Source: a virus (Duplodnaviria; Heunggongvirae; Uroviricota; Caudoviricetes). Taken from it: 47,135 bases of DNA. How positions within the stretch are numbered: the stretch's first letter is position 1; the number at the start of each line of letters is the position of its first letter. Positions 1-47,135 of this stretch are shown in pieces. Under the pieces are notes generated by a model. That model worked only from the letters and a program-made list of their open reading frames with translations. It was not told the DNA's origin and ran no database searches. A program made the position numbers and the translations under genes. The stretch lies in the IMG/VR virus record IMGVR_UViG_2541047877_000007; one strand, written 5' to 3'.

Positions 1-1284
1 TTACAGACTTCTTGAAGGTTGCGCAGCTGTTACAACACGCGGTTGATCTTCCGCGGCATCTTCCAGTGCACTTAAATCACGGTCTCTCACTTCTGGCATT
101 TTCAGCGCAGAGATTAAACCAATCACTGAATATGCCATGATCATAATGGCGATCGGATACCAGGATTCCGTCATGGTGCAGAAAATACCCGCCAGGATAG
201 GACCAAAACCGGAAGCGATAAGACCACCAATTTCTTTAGAAATCGCCATCCGGGTAAAGCGGTTTTTACAGCCGAACATTTCTGCCATGGTAATGTTTTC
301 CAGAGCAAATAATCCCAGCACCGCACAGTTATGAATCACAATCAGTGCAACCATAATGGTGCTCGGGGCATAGCTTTTATCTACGATGATAGAAAGCATT
401 GGCCACGCCAGCACAATCGCAGAGGTATTCATAATAATATACGGGATCCGGCGACCTATTTTATCGGATAACCAACCAAGGAACGGAATGGTCATAAAGC
501 CGAGAATCGAACTGATCATCAATGCATCTGTTGGAATTGCTTTGTTAAACAATAACGTCTGCACTAAATAGCCTGCAAGGAAAGTCTGAATTAAACCGGA
601 GTTACCAGCCTGACCAAAACGCAGCCCTGTTGCCAGCCAGAAGGATTTGCTCTGGAACATGCTACCAGCAGGTGCAGGTTTTGCTGTCGGTTGGTTGCTG
701 TCGTTAACCTTCTCAAAGACCGGGCTTTCTTTCAGATTCATACGCAACCAGATAGCAAAGACCATCACGACAACGCTCGCCAGGAACGGTATACGCCATC
801 CCCACGCAAGCAGTTCCTCTTTACTGAGAATGAAGAACATAAAGGCCCAGATTGCCGTTGCGCTCAAGGTTCCGCAGTTAGTCCCCATAGCAACAAATGA
901 GGAGATAATTCCGCGCTTACCTTTTGGTGCATATTCCGCCAGCATCGTGCCGGCACCGGAAATTTCCGCGCCTGCCCCCAGCCCCTGAATAATACGCAGC
1001 GTCACCAGCAAAATTGGCGCAAACACACCAATTTGTGCATAGGTCGGCAGCACACCAATTAAGGTAGTACAGATCCCCATCATAGTGATGGTAATAAAGA
1101 GCACTTTTTTACGCCCGATTCTGTCGCCCATTTTGCCGAAAATAAATGCTCCGACAATACGCGCCACATAACCTGCACCGTAGGTTCCCATTGCCAGAAT
1201 TAACGCCATTGCCGTTGATGATTCAGGAAAAAATATTTCATGAAACACTAACGCTGCGCCGAGCGAATATAACTGGAAATCCAT
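1..1284 (-). CDS. ydfJ: MFS-family transporter, chromosomal gene flanking the prophage
   Basis: 427-aa ORF whose stop codon is window positions 1-3; many hydrophobic segments and an MFS loop signature (GDRIGRKK). Symbol is from recalled synteny with the K-12 Qin prophage flank, not from a search. Confidence 0.75.
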   Translation of the reverse strand: MDFQLYSLGAALVFHEIFFPESSTAMALILAMGTYGAGYVARIVGAFIFGKMGDRIGRKKVLFITITMMGICTTLIGVLPTYAQIGVFAPILLVTLRIIQGLGAGAEISGAGTMLAEYAPKGKRGIISSFVAMGTNCGTLSATAIWAFMFFILSKEELLAWGWRIPFLASVVVMVFAIWLRMNLKESPVFEKVNDSNQPTAKPAPAGSMFQSKSFWLATGLRFGQAGNSGLIQTFLAGYLVQTLLFNKAIPTDALMISSILGFMTIPFLGWLSDKIGRRIPYIIMNTSAIVLAWPMLSIIVDKSYAPSTIMVALIVIHNCAVLGLFALENITMAEMFGCKNRFTRMAISKEIGGLIASGFGPILAGIFCTMTESWYPIAIMIMAYSVIGLISALKMPEVRDRDLSALEDAAEDQPRVVTAAQPSRSL

Positions 1285-1887
1285 AATTCACAGGTGTTTT
1301 TTCCCATCCTGTGGTTTCCTTGGCGTTTTCTAGGTTTTTTCAGATAGTTGCATTTTTTAAAAAGCATCCTAAGTTCGATCTCAGTGTCTATCTGGGGCCT
1401 ATTTCTGTCCCATATATGCCCCAAAAAAACTCCCCAACAGATAAGTAGTTTTTTCATGGATTTATGCGTAAAATCAAGAACGGCTGGAAATCATTCAATA
1501 CTCACACTATCGAAAAATTTACCAGCCAACCGCAGCACGTTCTTGCATAAGGCGTGTCTGCGGTTTTTCAACTATTCAGATACATCACTCCCATCACATT
1601 CATTCCTCCGCATCAAAGGCATATAGGCTATATCACCTTGATATTTTTCTTCTTCAGATAAAAACTGTTATCTATGTATACTTTTAAACCCAATCCGTGT
1701 AGAGTCTCTGCATAAGATAGTTTGCAGTTGCCGCTTCAGCTTGCGCCATAAACCGCCTGATTTTTGCTGCCACCTGTTAGCATTCCTGTATACCTGAAAC
1801 GACAATGTTTATCTACGAACTTTAAGAACACCCAAGATAAAAATTGTCAACTATATCATATATAACACATTACTAATTCGAGGCTAT

Positions 1888-2001
1888 ATGAACAGCATAC
1901 TGATAATCACTTCTCTCCTTATCATATTCAGCATTTTTAGTCATGCCCTAATAAAATTAGGGATTGGCATATCCAATAACCCAGACAAAACCGATGTATA
2001 A
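1888..2001 (+). CDS. candidate small hydrophobic peptide (37 aa, [37 protein letters not shown])
   Basis: ATG at 1888 with GAGG 6 nt upstream, stop TAA at 1999-2001; hand-translated and verified codon by codon. Lies in an AT-rich gap with no other ORF. Confidence 0.25.
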
Positions 2002-2069
2002 GCCAACATATCCTGAATCAGACATACAATATCGCAATGAAAATCAATAATATTTTAAGGAATATCTTC

Positions 2070-2303
2070 ATGAAATCAAAAGACACCCTAAAGTGGTTCC
2101 CTGCGCAGCTTCCTGAAGTAAGAATTATCCTAGGGGATGCTGTAGTGGAAGTAGCAAAACAGGGAAGACCTATCAATACCAGAACATTGCTTGATTACAT
2201 TGAAGGAAACATAAAGAAAAAATCATGGCTGGATAACAAAGAATTATTACAAACAGCGATATCAGTTCTTAAAGACAACCAAAATTTAAATGGTAAAATG
2301 TAA
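2070..2303 (+). CDS. ydfK: YdfK/YnaE-type small prophage protein (cold-shock-associated family)
   Basis: 77 aa from ATG 2070 with AAGGA RBS 8 nt upstream; the ORF-track start at 2037 is probably an upstream extension. Confidence 0.7.
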   Translation: MKSKDTLKWFPAQLPEVRIILGDAVVEVAKQGRPINTRTLLDYIEGNIKKKSWLDNKELLQTAISVLKDNQNLNGKM

Positions 2304-2619: not shown

Positions 2620-3210
2620 ATGTCTCGAATTTTTGCTTACTGTCGGATATCAACGCTGGATCAGACCACCGAAAATCAACGCCGGGAAATCGAAAGTGCA
2701 GGTTTTAAAATCAAACCTCAGCAAATAATCGAAGAACACATTAGCGGCTCAGCAGCAACCAGTGAGCGTCCTGGTTTTAACCGGTTGCTTGCTCGCCTGA
2801 AATGTGGTGATCAATTGATTGTGACAAAACTGGATCGCCTTGGTTGTAATGCAATGGATATCAGGAAAACAGTGGAACAACTGACCGAAACAGGTATCAG
2901 AGTGCATTGCTTAGCATTGGGGGGCATTGACCTGACCAGTCCAACAGGAAAAATGATGATGCAAGTAATTTCAGCAGTCGCTGAATTTGAACGAGACCTT
3001 TTACTTGAACGCACTCATTCCGGGATAGTAAGAGCCCGCGGCGCAGGGAAACGTTTTGGTCGACCACCTGTGTTAAATGAAGAACAGAAACAGGTGGTAT
3101 TCGAACGAATTAAGTCAGGTGTAAGTATAAGTGCCATTGCCCGGGAATTCAAAACCTCGCGGCAAACCATTTTAAGAGCCAAAGCAAAACTTCAGACACC
3201 TGACATATAA
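2620..3210 (+). CDS. pin: serine-recombinase DNA invertase (Pin/Gin/Hin family)
   Basis: 196 aa; N-terminal catalytic-serine motif ([10 protein letters not shown]) and C-terminal HTH; sits next to tail-fibre genes as in Mu/P1/e14-type systems. Confidence 0.9.
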
Positions 3211-3307: not shown

Positions 3308-3883
3308 CTACGGCAGTGCTGGCCATTCAATATCCTGTGCAGTTGACGTATCAACACGGTTCAGCAATACCCGATACTTTTTCCATGCTTCCAGCAACGA
3401 GATTTCTTCCTCCGTTGCAATTTCCAGATCTGCAGCATCCTGAAGCGGCGCAATATGCTCACTGGCTACCTGCATCAGGTTGTTTTTTGTTTCTTCCGCC
3501 TCCCGGATCCGGAACAGTTTTTCTGCTTCCGTATCCTTCACCCAGGCTGTGCCGTTCCACTTCTGAAACTCCCCTTCCGGGGATAACCAGGTGACATTTT
3601 CCGGTAATGGGCCAAGTTCAGAAATAAATAACGCGTCGCCGGAAGCCACGTCATAGACGGTTTTACCCCGATGATCTTCAACGAGATGCCACGATGCCTC
3701 ATCACTGTTGAAAACAGCCACGAAGCCAGCCGGAATATCTGGCGGTGCAATATCGGTACTGTTTGCTGGCAGACCTGTATGAGGCGGAATATATGCGTCA
3801 CCTTCACCAATAAATTCATTAGTTCCTGCCAGCAGATTATAAATTTTTATGGTCCGTGGTTGTTCACTCATTCTGAATGCCAT
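3308..3883 (-). CDS. tfa: tail fiber assembly protein Tfa
   Basis: 191 aa, N-terminus [24 protein letters not shown] matches recalled lambda Tfa; start overlaps the stf stop. Confidence 0.9.
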
Positions 3884-6798
3884 TATGCAAGCCTCACAAT
3901 GTAGTTAAATGCGATGTTTTTGACAGTGTTTTCCGCGTTACCAGCAGCGTTAACGGTGATGGTGTGTCCATGTGAGCCAATCGCAACAGAGTGCGTATGA
4001 GCACCAATACCGACAGTATGTGCGTGAGCACCTGCAGATGCAGCTGTGCCGCTGACACTATGAGTGTGCGCTCCTGCAGCACTTGTATTCACACTGGCCG
4101 CAGACACTACCTTATGTACTGACCCATTTTGTGACCACTGGCTGACTGCTGATGCGCCTGTGACACTATGAGTATGGTTTCCGGCACTTGCGGCTGTACC
4201 GCTCACACTGTGCGTATGCGCCCCGGTGTTATTCGTGGATTTAGTGCCGTAATCAAACGACGATGTGGTTTTCGTCCCCAAATCCGTACTGGATGCACTG
4301 GCGCTGTGGGTGTGCGATTTAATGCCGTCCTGTTCCTGAGACAATACGGCCCGACCACTGGCAGGTTTGCCCTTAATCGTCCAGCCACGCATATCAGGGA
4401 TCACGCCTGACGGATAAGCGGTTGCAAGTTTCGGGTAAGCGGATTTGTCAAAAGTCTGCCCCTGCATCAGGGCATAACCAGACGGAACGGTATCTGATGG
4501 CCACGGGATTGGTGCGCCAGGCGGATAAAACTGCTCTGATGGCGTATAGAGTGAATAAACTGTACCGTCCGTTAACCCTTCCGGCTTATTAGCAGAATAT
4601 GCTGGTGACGTATGAATAGTCACGCTGGCATTACTGGTATAATCCCATTGAATATTTACACCAGTCGCATAATTTCCGATTGCAACGTAAATATCGTAAG
4701 TATCACCAGATGTATTGACCCAGGCAAAATTTGTAAACCCTGTCGATGTGCGCTGCCATAAAGCACCAGTAATCCCCTTCGGATTACCATTACCTGCACG
4801 CAAAACAAGTTCAGATATACCTGCCTGTTGAGGTGACCCCACGTTAAATCCCGCGCCACCAATCAACGTAATTGAAACAACAGAACTCGCCTGTGGCATG
4901 GTTACCGTTGCTAATTTGAACCAACCAGCACCACCGCTGAATGACATTGTTGTTGAGTTAAGCGTACCAATATCTTTCGGCGTCAGTGTTATATCCGCTG
5001 AAAGCGCCTTACCATTCACCTTACGGGCAGAAGGTACCCGACCATTCGCATTATCATTAGCTGCTTTCACTGCTTTCGGTGTCGCGGCAAGCGTTTCAGA
5101 TGCGCTGTTGGTTGCACTACTGAGCTGGACAATTCCTTTTTGTGCTGTCGTAGCGTCCTGAGCAGTATATTTCCCGTTAGCAAGGTCATAGGCTGCCTTT
5201 ACCGACTTTGGCGTTGCCGCCAGCATTTCAGATGTGCTGTTGGTCGCGCTGCTGAGCTGAACTATCCCTTTTTGTGCTGTCGTTGCATCCTGTGCGGTGT
5301 ATTTCCCGTTAGCCAGCTCATACGCGGCCTTAACGGCTTTTGGCGTTGCCGCCAGTGACTCGGAAGTGCTGTTAGTCGCACTGCTGAGCTGTACTATCCC
5401 CTTTTTCGTCGTGCTCGCATCCTCAAGCGCCACGGCGGATGCAATATCCTCTGCCCGTTTTGCCGCTGTCTCGGCGCGCGTTGCCGCGGATTCCGCCGTA
5501 CTTTTGCTCTGAGCTGCCGCCGTCGCACTGCCAGCTGCCTCTGTCGCCTTCGTGGATGCCGTCGTGGCGCTGCCCTTTGCTGCTGACGCCTGTCTGGTCG
5601 CCTCATCTTTTGAAGCAGACGCAGATGATGCCGATGACGCCGCCGAACTGGCGGACGATGCGGCAGCCGTTTTTGAGGATTCTGCGCTGGTTTCCGACGC
5701 TTTCGCGTTCGTCTCGGATGTCTTCGCTGCGGAAGCAGACCTCGCTGCTGCGCTGGCCTGTTCAGTGGCTTCGCCAGCCTTCGTTGTGGCTGTTGAAGCG
5801 GACGATGCGGCGCTTTCTGCCGATTTTCCGGCAGCGGTGGCACTGGCTGAGGCCTGCCCGGCACTTGTTGACGCGGCACTGGCAGACGACGCAGCCGCTG
5901 TTTTTGAGCCTGCCGCAGCTGAGGCGCTCTGTCCCGCTGCCGTCTCAGAAGACCTGGCGTTCGTCTCGGACGTTTTTGCCGCCTTCGCGGAATTTGCTGC
6001 CGCCGTTGCCGAGGAAGCTGCGCTACTGGCGCTCGAGGATGCGTTCGTTTCTGATGATTTTGCCGCCTCTTTTGAAGCCGACGCATCCCGGGCTGAGGTG
6101 GCAGCTTCTGACGCTTTCGTGGTCGCGGTGGATGCAGAAGTGGCGGCTGATTGTTGTGACGCTGCAGCATTCGTTTCTGACGTTTTCGCGGCAGCGGCAC
6201 TGGTAGCTGCCGCGCTTTTTGAGGACTCTGCAGCGGCAGCACTTTTTTCCGCTTCAGTGGCCTTTGTTGATGCCGTTCCTGCGCTGGAAGACGCTGACTG
6301 AGCCGACGAAGCGGCCTGTCCGGCTGACGTGCTGGCTGCACGTGCTGAATCTGCAGCATCAGTCGCATGGGTTGCCGCCTCACGGGCAGATGTGCCGGCA
6401 TCACTGGCTGACTTCTTCGCGGCTGCCGTGTTCTGTGCCACCACGGACGCGTTACGCGCCACCTCTTCCACCATCTGTTCAAAACGGCGCAGTGCCTCCG
6501 GACGGGCATCATCCTCCGTCATGGCACCGAGAAAATCATTCAGCGTACCGGGTTGAGAATCTTCATACACGGTGATGGTCCCGGCATGTGACGGCGGGAA
6601 TCCTTCCACCAACAGAATAACGCTGTACTGCCCGTACTCAACGTCCATGCTGTAACGCCCGGCTTCATCCGGATTTTCTGAGGCCAGCGTGTTCACCACC
6701 ACCGTGGTGCTGTTACGTTTTGCTTTCAGCTGGATTGTGCAGTTCTGTACCGGTTTTCCTGTGCCGTCTTTCAGTACACCTGAAATCTTTACTGCCAT
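3883..6798 (-). CDS. stf: side tail fiber protein Stf
   Basis: N-terminus [16 protein letters not shown] as in lambda Stf; long Ala/Ser/Thr-rich shaft; three tandem 41-aa repeats; His-rich C-terminal repeats. Start taken at ATG 6798 with GGGGTGA RBS; the track extends to a non-ATG codon at 6804. Confidence 0.9.
5050..5425. repeat. three tandem coding repeats of about 123 bp inside stf
   Basis: Three near-identical DNA units, each encoding [15 protein letters not shown](S/M/T)LAATPK(A/S)[19 protein letters not shown]. Confidence 0.8.
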
Positions 6799-6809
6799 AT
6801 TCACCCCAC

Positions 6810-7539: not shown

Positions 7540-8235
7540 TCTTACCAGCCGCGCCCTAACAGGCGCACACGATCTGACATTTGCATCCAACTTCGTTACT
7601 TACGGCCCGTAAACGGGCTGCCCGGATAGGGAATCGATAACTGCTCTCCCATTTTATCCTCTTCAAGCTGGTGCTTTATGTAATCCTGTATCTTCGCCGT
7701 GTTCTTACCCACTGTATCGACGTAGTACCCTCTGCACCAGAACTCCCTGTTCCTGTATTTGAATTTCAAATCACCAAACTGCTCGTAAAGCATCAGACTG
7801 CTTTTCCCTTTCAGATATCCCATAAACCCGGATACGCTCATTTTAGGCGGGATCTCCACAAGCATATGGATATGATCTGCACAGCATTCAGCTTCCAGAA
7901 TCCGTACGCTTTTCCACTCACACAGCTTTCTCAAAATACTGCCTATTGCTCTACGCTTCTCTCTGTAGAACACCTGTCTTCGGTATTTTGGCGCAAAAAC
8001 TATGTGATATTTACAGTTCCATCGGGTGTGCGCTAAGCTCTTTTCGTTCCCCATTGGGACCCCCTTTTGATTTCTTGTTTGACACTTGCAGTTGCCAGAC
8101 CGCAAGGTGTTTTAACAAATCAAAAGGGGTTTTAATAACTGGCTCAAAGCTGAAAGCTTTCCGGAACCCCCAGCCTAGCTGGGGGTTTTCTGTGCACAAA
8201 AAAGGCGTCATTTCTGACGCCCGTTCTGGGTTATA
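7540..8235. mobile_element. IS200-type insertion sequence (IS200/IS605 family) between J and lom; boundaries approximate
   Basis: About 700 bp carrying only a Y1 transposase gene; end region has a 13-bp inverted repeat (ccccttttgattt / aaatcaaaagggg) overlapping the transposase RBS plus two further hairpins (8166-8186, 8204-8221), matching the known IS200 left-end organisation. Confidence 0.6.
7596..8054 (-). CDS. tnpA: IS200/IS605-family Y1 (HUH) transposase TnpA
   Basis: 152 aa from ATG 8054; HUH motif (HIHMLVEIPP) and typical IS200 TnpA size. Confidence 0.85.
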   Translation of the reverse strand: MGNEKSLAHTRWNCKYHIVFAPKYRRQVFYREKRRAIGSILRKLCEWKSVRILEAECCADHIHMLVEIPPKMSVSGFMGYLKGKSSLMLYEQFGDLKFKYRNREFWCRGYYVDTVGKNTAKIQDYIKHQLEEDKMGEQLSIPYPGSPFTGRK

Positions 8236-28765: not shown

Positions 28766-29036
28766 GATGTTACCGTAGTATGTGAGTATCCATCGAATAG
28801 ATACCAAGCAAAAAAGCTCCCGAAGGAGCCTTCATTTTCACTTTTTTAAATCCAACGACAGACGGCTGGCATTTAAGTATTGTGAAATATTATCAAATGT
28901 AATCATCATTGATTTACAAAAGATACATTTTGCCCCGAAAGGATTCATGTCAGAAACATCAAAAGATGATGTTCTATACTGGGAACCATGACAACACGGG
29001 CATCTAAAGTGAATATGGTTTGTAATATTGTCTACC

Positions 29037-29249
29037 TCAAAGCGCCACTACATGAACAGCGGCAGGACCTTTAGGTCCGTTCTCAATACCAAATTCAACT
29101 TCCTGATTCTCAGTTAATGTTTTGAAATCGTTGCTCTGAATTGCTGAGAAATGGACAAACACATCTTTGCTGCCATCTTTCGGCGTGATGAAACCAAAAC
29201 CTTTTTCAGGGTTAAACCATTTCACTAAACCAGTCATTTTGTTAGACAT
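29037..29249 (-). CDS. cspI: CspA-family cold shock protein
   Basis: 70 aa with RNP motifs KGFGFI and VFVHF; symbol from position next to the spanin genes as in Qin. Confidence 0.85.
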
Positions 29250-29612
29250 AATTATTACCTTTTGAAGAAATTAGCCCTTGGGCAGAATGGTCCGAAAAAA
29301 AATATCAGAGAGAAAAACCAACAAGGAAATCTCAAGAGGTACAAATAATAAAATTATAACAATGACTGCTTCAGATAAATTTGTAACAAACCAGAACACC
29401 ATTAACGCATGATTAACCACCCATAGCAAGGATTACTTTTGTAAAGAAAAACACAGCAATGAAAGAATAGCTTTATTTATTAATAATAACGTGTCATTCT
29501 GATTAAGACCTTTTATCTTACCCTTAAGATTTCAGGAATTTTGGCTCATGGAAGAGTCCTTTTTATTTAAATTTTACATTCCGCGATGTAAATGTTCCGA
29601 TTTAATATTACC

Positions 29613-31640: not shown

Positions 31641-31921
31641 GAGATTGTGGTGCTTTTTGTGGGAGTCATCCACTTACGCACTTTGTTTTGCCATGCCAGC
31701 AGTTAGCTTCTGCTGTAAAACTATTCATGCAGCAAACCTGCACTTCACCACAATGGTTAGCATACTTTTCCTGATTAAGATTTTGCCAAATATGCTAGCC
31801 ATTGTTTCATGTATTGGACCTCCTTACTTTTTATTAAAGAGATCCAATATTCACTACTCTGTCCGTATCTCTACTCAGGCATCAGCCTTCTTCGTTATCG
31901 TATACAGACGAGCGATGAATT

Positions 31922-32137
31922 TTAATCAGTAATGATGACATTTGCTGCTGCAGGACCTTTAGCACCACTCTCTATAGAGAAGGTAACCTTTTGACCTTCA
32001 AATAAGGTTCGATAATTATCATTCTGAATCGCAGAAAAATGCACAAACACATCTTTACTACCATCAACAGGAGAAATAAAGCCGAAACCTTTATCAGCGT
32101 TAAACCATTTTACTAAACCAGTCATTTTATTTGACAT
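31922..32137 (-). CDS. cspB: CspA-family cold shock protein
   Basis: 71 aa with KGFGFI and VFVHF motifs; symbol from Qin-like order. Confidence 0.8.
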
Positions 32138-32437
32138 TCTACATTCCTTAACTTGAGCCTTTCGGCATAAATGGTTTGCATAACAGAAACGACTTCGTAC
32201 TTAATTGGAGAGACTCAAAGAAGGAATAAGTGAATAACACCTGAAATGAGAACTGCTTTAGTAAACTACTTCGTATATCGTCTGTTCTTCAAACCGACGC
32301 AATCATTAACGCATAGTTGAACATATGAAGCAATGTTTATTTTAGACATCCAGCCATCTTCAACCCCATCAAAAAACTATAGCTTTCTTCAGGAACGTGT
32401 GTATAGTGCGCCAAGTTATCAGTATTAAGGAATTTTT

Positions 32438-35701: not shown

Positions 35702-35857
35702 TTACTCCTCAGGTTCGTAAGCTGTGAAGACAGCGACCTCCGTCTGGCCGGTTCGGATTCGTACCTCGCAGAGGTCTTTCCTCGTTACCAGTGCCGTCAC
35801 TATGACGGTTAAACAGATGACGATCAGGGCGATTAACATCGCCTTTTGCTGCTTCAT
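35702..35857 (-). CDS. hok: Hok/Gef-family type I toxin
   Basis: 51 aa MKQQKAMLIALIVICLTVIVTALVTRKDLCEVRIRTGQTEVAVFTAYEPEE; single TM helix and conserved Hok C-terminal motif. Confidence 0.9.
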   Translation of the reverse strand: MKQQKAMLIALIVICLTVIVTALVTRKDLCEVRIRTGQTEVAVFTAYEPEE

Positions 35858-35914
35858 AGCCTGCTTCTCCTTGCCTTTCGGCTCGTAAGAGGCTAACCTA
35901 CATGTGTCTAGCAT
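35702..35914 (-). CDS. mok: mok-like reading frame (N-terminally extended frame sharing the hok stop)
   Basis: In-frame ATG 57 nt upstream of the hok start, mirroring recalled chromosomal mok/hok annotation. Confidence 0.5.
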   Translation of the reverse strand: MLDTCRLASYEPKGKEKQAMKQQKAMLIALIVICLTVIVTALVTRKDLCEVRIRTGQTEVAVFTAYEPEE

Positions 35915-35960
35915 GAAATTGGCCTCAGATTAATGTTAAGCGTCTTGCAGGACGCGTAAT
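35860..35960 (+). ncRNA. sok: expected position of a Sok-like antisense RNA (approximate)
   Basis: Inferred only from hok/mok organisation; ends and promoter not identified. Confidence 0.25.
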
Positions 35961-36531
35961 GTTAACTGGGGCTTTTCTCTATCTGCCTTTGGTGTTCATG
36001 CCCGAGGCAGATAGCCTCAAGCACCCGCAGCCATTCTACTTAACTACCGTTACCTCGCCAATATGAAATCAGTCAGAAAGGCGATCCATAAGAACAATAG
36101 CAAGACAATAAATCGCCATTACAGCCGTAATAGCCAGCGCACATTTGAGAACCAGCACCACAACCTCCTGTATTGGACGTAGACCAGTCCTGATGAATAT
36201 GAGGCTGTCTCGTCAGTGATTCAATACAACTATTGGGTATAGTTTCTCTGATTTTTTCTGTGGAAATGGGGCACAACCACTAGTCACCACCAGCACTTCT
36301 TTTAATACGCAAAGTCCGACACAAGCTAACCTTCTAGTCCGCTTTGAGCGAAAAACAGCCATAATTTAGTGCCACGTATATAATGATAGAGCTATTCAAG
36401 CTAGCAATTCACATGTAAAAATTCAGAGGGTAGAAGCACATAGTTATAAATGTTGGCTCCATCGACAAATTGCGGTCTCAAGTACATTTATTAATGTTGC
36501 CCCCGCATTAACAAATCATCAAGGTGACGAC

Positions 36532-42068: not shown

Positions 42069-42554
42069 AACTGTGGTGATTTTAAGGATACCACCTCGCC
42101 TGACGTGGTTAAAAGCAGGCACACAACACGAAAGCGCACGGCGAAGTTCGTCTCACTGTACGGTGTCGTCAAATTTAATTCGACCGTGCGCTTCCGGTTG
42201 TGGCAACCCGCGAAATGGCGCGGCGATAAGTATGGCGGGGTTATTCCTTCCCCGTTGAGGACACCGAGTTGTCAGGTTGACCATACGCTTAAGCGACAAC
42301 CCCGCTGCAACGCCCTCTGTTATCAATTTTCTGGTGACGTTTGGCGGTATCAGTTTTACTCCGTGACTGCTCTGCCGCCGTTTTTAAAGTGAATTTTGTG
42401 ATGCGGTGAATGCGGCTAAGCGCACGCGGAACAGTTAAAACCAAAAACAGTGTTATGGGTGGATTCTCTGTATCCGGCGTTAATTGTTAACTGGTTAACG
42501 TCACCTGGAGGCACCAGGCACTGCATCACAAAATTCATTGTTGAGGACGCGATA

Positions 42555-45568: not shown

Positions 45569-45820
45569 ATGAGCGAAGTAATCATGATTGTCTCTCCCGG
45601 CAAATGGGTATCCGAAGAGCAGTTAATTGCGCTGAAAGGAATAAAAAAAGGTACGTTAAAAAAGGCCCGGGAAAAATCGTTTATGGAAGGAAGGGAATAT
45701 AAGCATGTCGCTCATGACGGTATGCCATGGGATAACAGTCCATGCTTTTACAACCTGGAAGAAATTGATCGCTGGATTGAGCGCCAGGCATCAGCAAGAC
45801 CAAGACGTCATCTTACTTGA
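45569..45820 (+). CDS. excisionase-like protein
   Basis: 83-aa basic ORF immediately upstream of the integrase. Confidence 0.55.
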   Translation: MSEVIMIVSPGKWVSEEQLIALKGIKKGTLKKAREKSFMEGREYKHVAHDGMPWDNSPCFYNLEEIDRWIERQASARPRRHLT

Positions 45821-45854
45821 CTAAAAGCCACACTAACTAATGAGAGAAGTTGAA

Positions 45855-47135
45855 ATGAAATATCCGACAGGCGTGGAAAACCATGGAGGGAAATTACGTA
45901 TCTGGTTTGTTTATAAAGGCGTAAGAGTCAGGGAAAACCTGGGGGTTCCTGACACAGCAAAAAACAGGCGCGTTGCAGGTGAGCTACGCGCCTCTGTTTG
46001 TTACGCAATAAAAACTGGTGTTTTCGACTATGCAAAACAGTTTCCCTCCTCACGCAATCTGGAAAAATTTGGTGAGGCCCGACAAGATTTAACCATAAAA
46101 GAACTGGCTGAAAAATTTCTGGCACTGAAAGAAACTGAAGTCGCAAAAACATCACTCAACACATACCGTGCCGTCATCAAAAATATCCTGAGCATAATCG
46201 GTGAAAAAAATCTTGCCTCATCGATTAATAAAGAAAAATTACTGGAGGTTCGTAAAGAGCTACTGACTGGATACCAGATCCCCAAAAGTAACTATATTGT
46301 TACACAACCAGGGAGATCGGCTGTAACTGTAAATAATTACATGACAAATCTTAACGCCGTGTTCCAGTTTGGTGTTGATAACGGTTACCTGGTAGATAAC
46401 CCGTTTAAGGGGATCTCGCCATTAAAGGAATCAAGAACCATTCCGGATCCTCTTTCGCGGGAGGAATTCATCCGTCTTATCGATGCGTGCAGAAATCAGC
46501 AAGCCAAAAATTTATGGTGTGTTTCTGTTTATACTGGCGTTCGCCCTGGTGAGCTGTGTGCACTTGGATGGGAGGACATAGATCTGAAAAATGGAACAAT
46601 GATGATCAGGAGAAATTTAGCAAAAGACCGTTTCACGGTACCAAAAACACAGGCGGGAACCAATCGGGTCATTCATCTTATTAAGCCAGCAATCGACGCT
46701 CTCCGGAGTCAGATGACATTAACGAGACTGAGCAAAGAGCATATCATTGATGTTCACCTCAGAGAGTATGGCAGAACAGAAAAACAAAAATGCACCTTTG
46801 TTTTTCAACCTGAAGTGTCAGCGAGAGTAAAAAATTATGGTGACCATTTTACCGTTGACTCAATAAGGCAGATGTGGGACGCAGCGATAAAACGTGCCGG
46901 ACTCCGCCATCGAAAATCATATCAGTCGAGACATACTTATGCCTGCTGGTCGCTGACAGCTGGTGCTAACCCGGCATTTATAGCAAACCAGATGGGCCAT
47001 GCAGATGCGCAAATGGTATTTCAGGTATACGGAAAATGGATGTCTGAAAACAATAATGCACAGGTAGCTTTGTTAAATACACAGTTAAGCGAGTTTGCCC
47101 CAACCATGCCCCATAACGAAGCAATGAAAAATTAA
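45855..47135 (+). CDS. int: tyrosine-recombinase integrase
   Basis: 426 aa from ATG 45855 with GAGAAG RBS; C-terminal catalytic region with R...HxxR...Y pattern (SRHTYACW, YGKW); stop codon is the last 3 nt of the window. Confidence 0.9.
   Translation: MKYPTGVENHGGKLRIWFVYKGVRVRENLGVPDTAKNRRVAGELRASVCYAIKTGVFDYAKQFPSSRNLEKFGEARQDLTIKELAEKFLALKETEVAKTSLNTYRAVIKNILSIIGEKNLASSINKEKLLEVRKELLTGYQIPKSNYIVTQPGRSAVTVNNYMTNLNAVFQFGVDNGYLVDNPFKGISPLKESRTIPDPLSREEFIRLIDACRNQQAKNLWCVSVYTGVRPGELCALGWEDIDLKNGTMMIRRNLAKDRFTVPKTQAGTNRVIHLIKPAIDALRSQMTLTRLSKEHIIDVHLREYGRTEKQKCTFVFQPEVSARVKNYGDHFTVDSIRQMWDAAIKRAGLRHRKSYQSRHTYACWSLTAGANPAFIANQMGHADAQMVFQVYGKWMSENNNAQVALLNTQLSEFAPTMPHNEAMKN

Follow-up and report, generated by a model that had tools for sequence, protein, structure and literature searches.

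Gene content of the locus

The window (the whole stretch of DNA that was analysed, 47,135 nucleotides in length) was searched for similarity in the region around its first genes. This region was identified as the E. coli ydfJ/Qin prophage locus, and many genomes were 100% identical to it. A gap of 785 bp (1285–2069) lies between the open reading frame (ORF) of ydfJ and the ydfK gene (Table 1). The GC content is 0.32–0.40 across 1200–2100, compared with 0.43–0.535 in ydfJ. DNA beyond the window was read from strain 118UI, which matches at 100% over 1000–2400 and over 60 bases at each end of the window and has the same overall length. The last base of the window (47135) is that of the integrase stop codon; in 118UI the integrase gene is followed by 187 bp and then by rspB.

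Table 1. Features at the two ends of the prophage, in window coordinates
Feature	Position	Strand	Basis
ydfJ, 3' part (codons 29–455), MHS-family MFS transporter	1–1284	−	ORF, MFS_1 Pfam match, PGAP
Common core/crossover region GAAATCCATAA, integrase-distal prophage junction	1276–1286		Four-way att comparison
Integrase-distal attP arm, positional equivalent of the lambda P arm	1287–1423		Contiguous with core and integrase gene in free phages
Candidate arm-type integrase site TGCCCCA	1417–1423	+	Within the arm's longest invariant block
Element of ~100 bp common to many lambdoid phages and the chromosomal ecpE–ykgJ spacer	1467–1567	+	
Probable intrinsic terminator, hairpin and T run	1528–1570 (hairpin 1528–1565)	+	Fold
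Upstream part of the ynfT–ydfK cargo module	1526–2069	+	Nearly identical to Rac (ynaM–ynaE)
ynfT, 37-aa hydrophobic small protein, YnaM/YnfT family	1888–2001	+	Profiles, annotation
ydfK, annotated cold shock protein, first sizeable prophage gene	2070–2303	+	RefSeq; phrog_2718 match
Excisionase gene	45569–45820	+	'Excisionase family protein' in 118UI and phage HannyBb
Tyrosine integrase with arm-binding N-terminal domain	45840–47135	+	Pfam
Candidate arm-type sites TGCCCCA in the integrase 3' end	47096–47102, 47107–47113	+	Motif copies

A first-pass annotation of the window had described this interval as an AT-rich gap without a substantial ORF; the ORF, GC and RefSeq evidence agrees with both the description and the limits given to it. 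The 37-aa hydrophobic ORF that it had listed within the gap exists and is ynfT, the only recognisable gene there, annotated as such in K-12 and in 118UI and unrelated to the attachment site. This ORF scored 63.9 bits against NCBIfam NF041477 (cutoff 35) and 96.2 bits against Pfam PF23676 (cutoff 27). The K-12 annotation lists ynfT as a protein; a literature search for experimental evidence on it found none, the whole-word matches being passing mentions. Apart from ynfT, the longest ORFs there, of 92 aa (TTG start, 1348–1626) and 69 aa (1248–1457, minus strand), had no Pfam or PHROG match and are unannotated in RefSeq, and they were regarded as non-coding.

The prophage junction and the truncation of ydfJ

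The 11-mer GAAATCCATAA is the sole word of at least nine bases common to the region around 1285 and the DNA past the integrase gene. It occurs once within the window, and its second copy was found in 118UI at 37 bp past the integrase stop codon, beyond the window end, where the first-pass annotation had expected a matching repeat to lie. The identical 11-mer is present in attB, in attP (two free phages), in the ydfJ-side junction and in the integrase-side junction. attB and attP share only these 11 bp, and each prophage junction consists of one host flank and one phage flank. The exact core identity for this phage is 11 bp, rising to 16 bp if a single indel is tolerated (GAAATCCATAA[A]TTCA); BLAST overlaps at the junction in other genomes are 16–19 bp, and the att sequence of ydfJ prophages has been given as 18–19 bp, set by four-way logic against an empty-site strain (PMC8112680). 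Sequence alone does not fix the true extent of the crossover region between the 11 bp exact here and the 18–19 bp published. The four att sequences identify integration as a conservative site-specific recombination between identical 11-bp cores, in which the phage tyrosine integrase recombined the attP core with the same 11 bases in codons 28–31 of ydfJ.

The segment 1287–2069 is complete in the isolated phages mEp460_ev081, HannyBb, Tritos and PhiR42_1 (98–99.7% identity), and the order in free phages is the integrase gene, the same 37 bp, the same 11-mer and then this segment. From these alignments, phage-specific DNA begins at 1287 and continues through the whole gap to 2069. In K-12 RefSeq the start of the feature 'cryptic prophage Qin' is set at 1,632,277 (NC_000913.3), equivalent to window position 1276. 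An independent mark of the breakpoint was given by the occupied-junction probe described below, which in empty-site genomes aligns only to window position 1290 (BLAST). The analysis found no evidence contradicting the junction assignment.

The ydfJ ORF of the window encodes 427 aa and begins with an apparent ATG (1284–1282), K-12 RefSeq annotates it as a protein, and the gap beside it is AT-rich and nearly ORF-free. Such features speak for an intact ydfJ separated from the phage by a host–phage intergenic spacer, with the attachment site somewhere in 1285–2069, but this reading is almost certainly wrong. The apparent ATG is Met29 of YdfJ and lies within the core, which occupies codons 28–31 of the intact 455-aa gene. 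When the window up to 1286 was joined to the sequence past the second core, the 455-aa ORF was restored, reading MTIEKHERSTKDLVKAAVSGWLGTALEF and then MDFQLY... Many complete genomes match the 800-nt empty site predicted from the two flanks at 100% identity; where the site is empty, a 455-aa ydfJ leads directly to rspB, and in strain M7424 this gene is annotated as intact and adjacent to rspB. Against the spacer also stand the end of occupied/empty homology at 1290, the presence of the whole of 1287–2069 in free phage genomes, and the PGAP label of ydfJ in the matching strain 118UI, 'incomplete; missing N-terminus'. Insertion thus split ydfJ, its first 28 codons and upstream region being shifted past the integrase gene, 46 kb off and 37 bp outside the window. 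Published work describes Qin as having inserted at the 5' end of ydfJ, which thereby lost its promoter and 28 N-terminal codons (PMC6379469), and we infer that the truncated gene is silent.

The locus is therefore almost certainly that of a full-length 46-kb lambdoid prophage at the E. coli Qin site, with its ydfJ-side junction at 1276–1286 and with a gap that is a mosaic of phage modules. The first-pass annotation had placed the left junction and attachment site in the gap. The junction is indeed there, but the core straddles the left edge, and nine of its 11 bases belong to the transporter ORF. A junction inside the transporter gene, which the annotation had named as an outcome that would refute its placement, is technically what was found, since the core is within ydfJ, and its 'host transporter gene' is a host gene but a fragment of one, without the first 28 codons and the upstream region. 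Both of the comparisons that it had suggested, with an empty site and with a repeat beyond the integrase gene, locate the junction. The prophage boundary is now fixed to the base, the 427-aa 'YdfJ' is a truncated gene and the gap belongs to the phage.

Occupancy of the site was assessed with a probe of 220 nt that had the occupied junction at its centre (coverage of at least 80%) and an equivalent probe for the empty site. The occupied junction was found in 3169 of the 5426 complete E. coli genomes (~58%) and the empty junction in 2009 (~37%), figures which show the dominance of the ydfJ insertion hot spot; 2561 records carry the junction sequence with an identity of at least 99%. The ydfJ locus has been reported as occupied in many strains including K-12 (PMC8112680). 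Insertion at ydfJ is well known and very common, and everything described here is already annotated or published. The result has little import beyond correct annotation; dissecting the gap into modules and proposing arm sites refine the picture only slightly. In strain GN05505 (NZ_CP095526.1, 1473198–1475375) an IS1 element interrupts the region and the match is in two pieces; an IS1B transposase is listed at this locus and ydfK is listed twice.

K-12 Qin and the PPydfJ prophages of Shiga-toxin-producing E. coli have the same ydfJ insertion point and the same core as this prophage, and the order ynfT, ydfK, pinQ, tfaQ beside the junction, as annotated in 118UI, is theirs as well. K-12 Qin is a 20.5-kb remnant, whereas the present element measures ~46 kb. 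Its att end (integrase, core and gap) closely matches the isolated phages mEp460_ev081 and HannyBb. In the ydfJ prophages of the O157/Stx2a type the arm is diverged, and a dinI-like gene with effector genes stands after it in place of ynfT–ydfK.

Attachment arms and integrase

The 783 bp from the core to ydfK can be read as a mosaic of an att arm (1287–1423), a dinI-like remnant with a shared element (1444–1567) and cargo (1526–2069). Such a dissection is useful for delimiting lambdoid prophages and for studying prophage-in-prophage integration.

The arm is ~78–80% identical in a diverged lineage of ydfJ prophages (O157:H7, Stx2a-converting phages) that has the same core. Homology between the arms of the two ydfJ lineages stops right after an invariant 17-mer, TGTCCCATATATGCCCC (1407–1423), and phages with unrelated integrases are without the 1287–1423 segment. 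The 17-mer ends in TGCCCCA, a motif that was picked post hoc and that occurs seven times in the 47-kb window, about the number expected by chance. Three of the seven copies, each on the plus strand, lie no more than 130 bp from the attP core; two of the three are in the final 40 bp of the integrase gene, 11 bp apart. The TGCCCCA blocks are candidate arm-type integrase sites, and the arm 1287–1423 probably holds one around the copy at 1417. A strict IHF consensus had no match in the in-window arm; one good match, TATCAAATAGTTG, is present in the proximal arm, within the 37 bp that lie just outside the window. For comparison of the proximal arm, a diverged ydfJ prophage of the Stx2a type was examined; the initial 3 kb of its record do not contain the core.

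The integrase scored 84.3 bits with Arm-DNA-bind_2 and 66.2 bits with Phage_integrase in Pfam, both above the cutoffs, and the integrase and excisionase ORFs are apparently intact. Lambda-family integrases bind the core through their catalytic and core-binding domains and the arms through the N-terminal domain, assisted by bending proteins. By analogy, the present integrase would bind core and arms in the lambda manner and the excisionase would direct excision. The near-identical free phage isolates suggest that this type of phage is active.

The layout of attP is that of lambda and HK97, with the integrase gene reading toward the core, flanking arms and b-region accessory DNA beyond, and the ~100-bp element is common to both of these phages and to the present one. 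Lambda has another core and targets the gal–bio spacer, whereas the target here is inside a gene. Only 37 bp separate the integrase stop codon from the core here, so that the proximal arm overlaps the coding end of the integrase gene, unlike in lambda and HK97.

Rac, whose target is ttcA, has its own arm in place of window positions 1287–1525. In this arm (K-12 right end, minus strand) three tandem TTTTGCCCC repeats stand where the present phage has TGCCCCA, which hints that the Rac and Qin-type integrases may recognise related arm-type sites.

Cargo module, shared element and hairpin

At the right end of Rac (pinR, ynaE, ynaM, ttcC junction) the sequence corresponding to 1526–2069, small gene included, is nearly identical and has the same integrase-distal position. 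Phages Turner and Kati share sequence with the window from 1514, and phage 2H10 from 1444. Judged from these boundaries, the ynfT–ydfK–pin cargo module moves among lambdoid phages independently of the integration module.

The element at 1467–1567 is about 84–92% identical over ~80–100 bp to copies in the ecpE–ykgJ spacer and in O157 ydfJ prophages. Lambda has a copy in its b region, a prophage remnant next to ybhB has another, and ~200 phage records contain the element. Because of this element nearly every E. coli genome matches part of the gap, and in many genomes short matches to it are the only match. In HK97 it comes directly after the annotated sib site. In phage 2H10 and the O157 ydfJ prophages it follows dinI-like genes, the stop codon of which abuts conserved sequence starting CGTAAAATC; in the window the dinI-like gene is reduced to a degenerate trace (1444–1466) and the element is kept. 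A 96-bp sequence resembling the ykgJ/ecpE spacer has been described as attB-in-PP_2, at which other lambdoid phages have integrated, including copies in ydfJ prophages (Nakamura et al., 2021; PMC8112680). The element fits this description and, from the homology described for the 96-bp sequence, we infer that it corresponds to attB-in-PP_2; here it is a candidate integration site only.

The right part of the element forms a hairpin followed by a T run (1528–1570), with a fold of −20.7 kcal/mol (z = −3.7), and the 109-nt stretch 1467–1575 folds on the plus strand with z = −5.65. The hairpin stem is kept in all aligned homologues, and the hairpin marks the left edge of the module common to Rac. 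It probably acts as an intrinsic terminator, and in the prophage it would insulate ynfT–ydfK from transcription entering through the junction. In the circular phage it is the first stable hairpin with a T run on the plus strand past the integrase gene, ~290 nt beyond the stop codon. A simple promoter and terminator scan gave counts no higher than in shuffled sequences, promoter-like matches for ynfT–ydfK being at chance level, and missed this hairpin. Homology of the hairpin to lambda sib was considered and rejected. The HK97 sib is immediately upstream of the element, and the corresponding stretch between arm and element (1400–1475, plus strand) showed no lambda-like sib fold (z = −0.11); the lambda sib hairpin has no homologue here.

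Two further readings would give the gap a role of its own. The element might be functional beyond marking a module joint, either as a secondary attachment site, through which other lambdoid phages could form prophage-in-prophage clusters at ydfJ, or, while the phage is unintegrated, as a lambda tI/sib-like terminator and retroregulator acting on the integrase transcript. Its identity to the ecpE–ykgJ spacer and the O157 copies and the integration of phages into 96-bp copies, including in ydfJ prophages (PMC8112680), favour the secondary site, for which this copy is a candidate. In favour of the retroregulator, the circular phage has the hairpin and T run on the far side of att, past the integrase gene; against it, the HK97 sib adjoins the element and is not within it, which means that lambda sib and the element are not homologous. 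Its place after a dinI-like gene in other phages fits an ordinary gene terminator, and we regard a function beyond the module joint as unlikely. Still less support can be given to a regulatory RNA encoded in the gap, for instance a minus-strand homologue of Shigella CssrB or a long ynfT–ydfK leader that responds to cold, a reading that we consider very improbable. It draws on an Rfam match to CssrB (1531–1668, minus strand, 28.7 bits; E = 0.0017 in a search of 1200–2700 and 0.00045 in a search of 1400–1800), on the fold of the plus strand over 1467–1575 and on the annotation of ydfK as a cold shock protein. With a gathering score of 76, the CssrB match is well below threshold, and nearly all of its score comes from the shared hairpin. 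At gathering thresholds Rfam gave nothing in the gap, and at relaxed thresholds only this match and two at chance level. The cspA thermoregulator model matched twice elsewhere in the window but neither in the gap nor upstream of ydfK; K-12 RefSeq has no RNA gene at the gap, and promoter-like sites in it are no commoner than in shuffles. The reading of the gap as a mosaic of phage modules is preferred to both.

Upstream of the ecpE–ykgJ copy of the element the sequence reads ...AACGAGTGGTTTCTTCACTAA, resembling the last codons of the dinI-like gene (...GACGAGTGGTTTGTTCACTAA in 2H10). A speculative and improbable extension is that the element is a portable landing pad for a second lambdoid phage in Qin-type prophages and that the chromosomal ecpE–ykgJ copy is a phage-end relic. 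This is the opposite direction to the published proposal, in which phages copied the element from the chromosomal spacer (PMC8112680).

Further Rfam matches were recorded deeper in the prophage, among them the Qin-like RNAs DicF and sok and cspA leaders. DicF (42329–42380, plus strand, 72.5 bits) and the sok antitoxin RNA (35852–36026, minus strand, 116 bits) are typical Qin cargo. Two cspA-type thermoregulator leaders (29010–29395 and 31906–32298, both minus strand; 112.8 and 158.8 bits) presumably precede prophage cold-shock genes. A full-length match to the Hfq-binding sRNA STnc490 (8064–8187, minus strand, 146.4 bits) is in the late region, and a full-length match to IS009 (3342–3540, minus strand, 220.9 bits) falls within tfaQ, the gene for tail fibre assembly, in its 3' part. 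A pin-type DNA invertase gene (2620–3210, plus strand) adjoins the genes for tail fibre assembly and for a 973-aa tail fibre (3308–6804, minus strand). Invertible host-range loci usually have this arrangement, and the tail fibre here keeps its full length, unlike the stfQ remnant of K-12.
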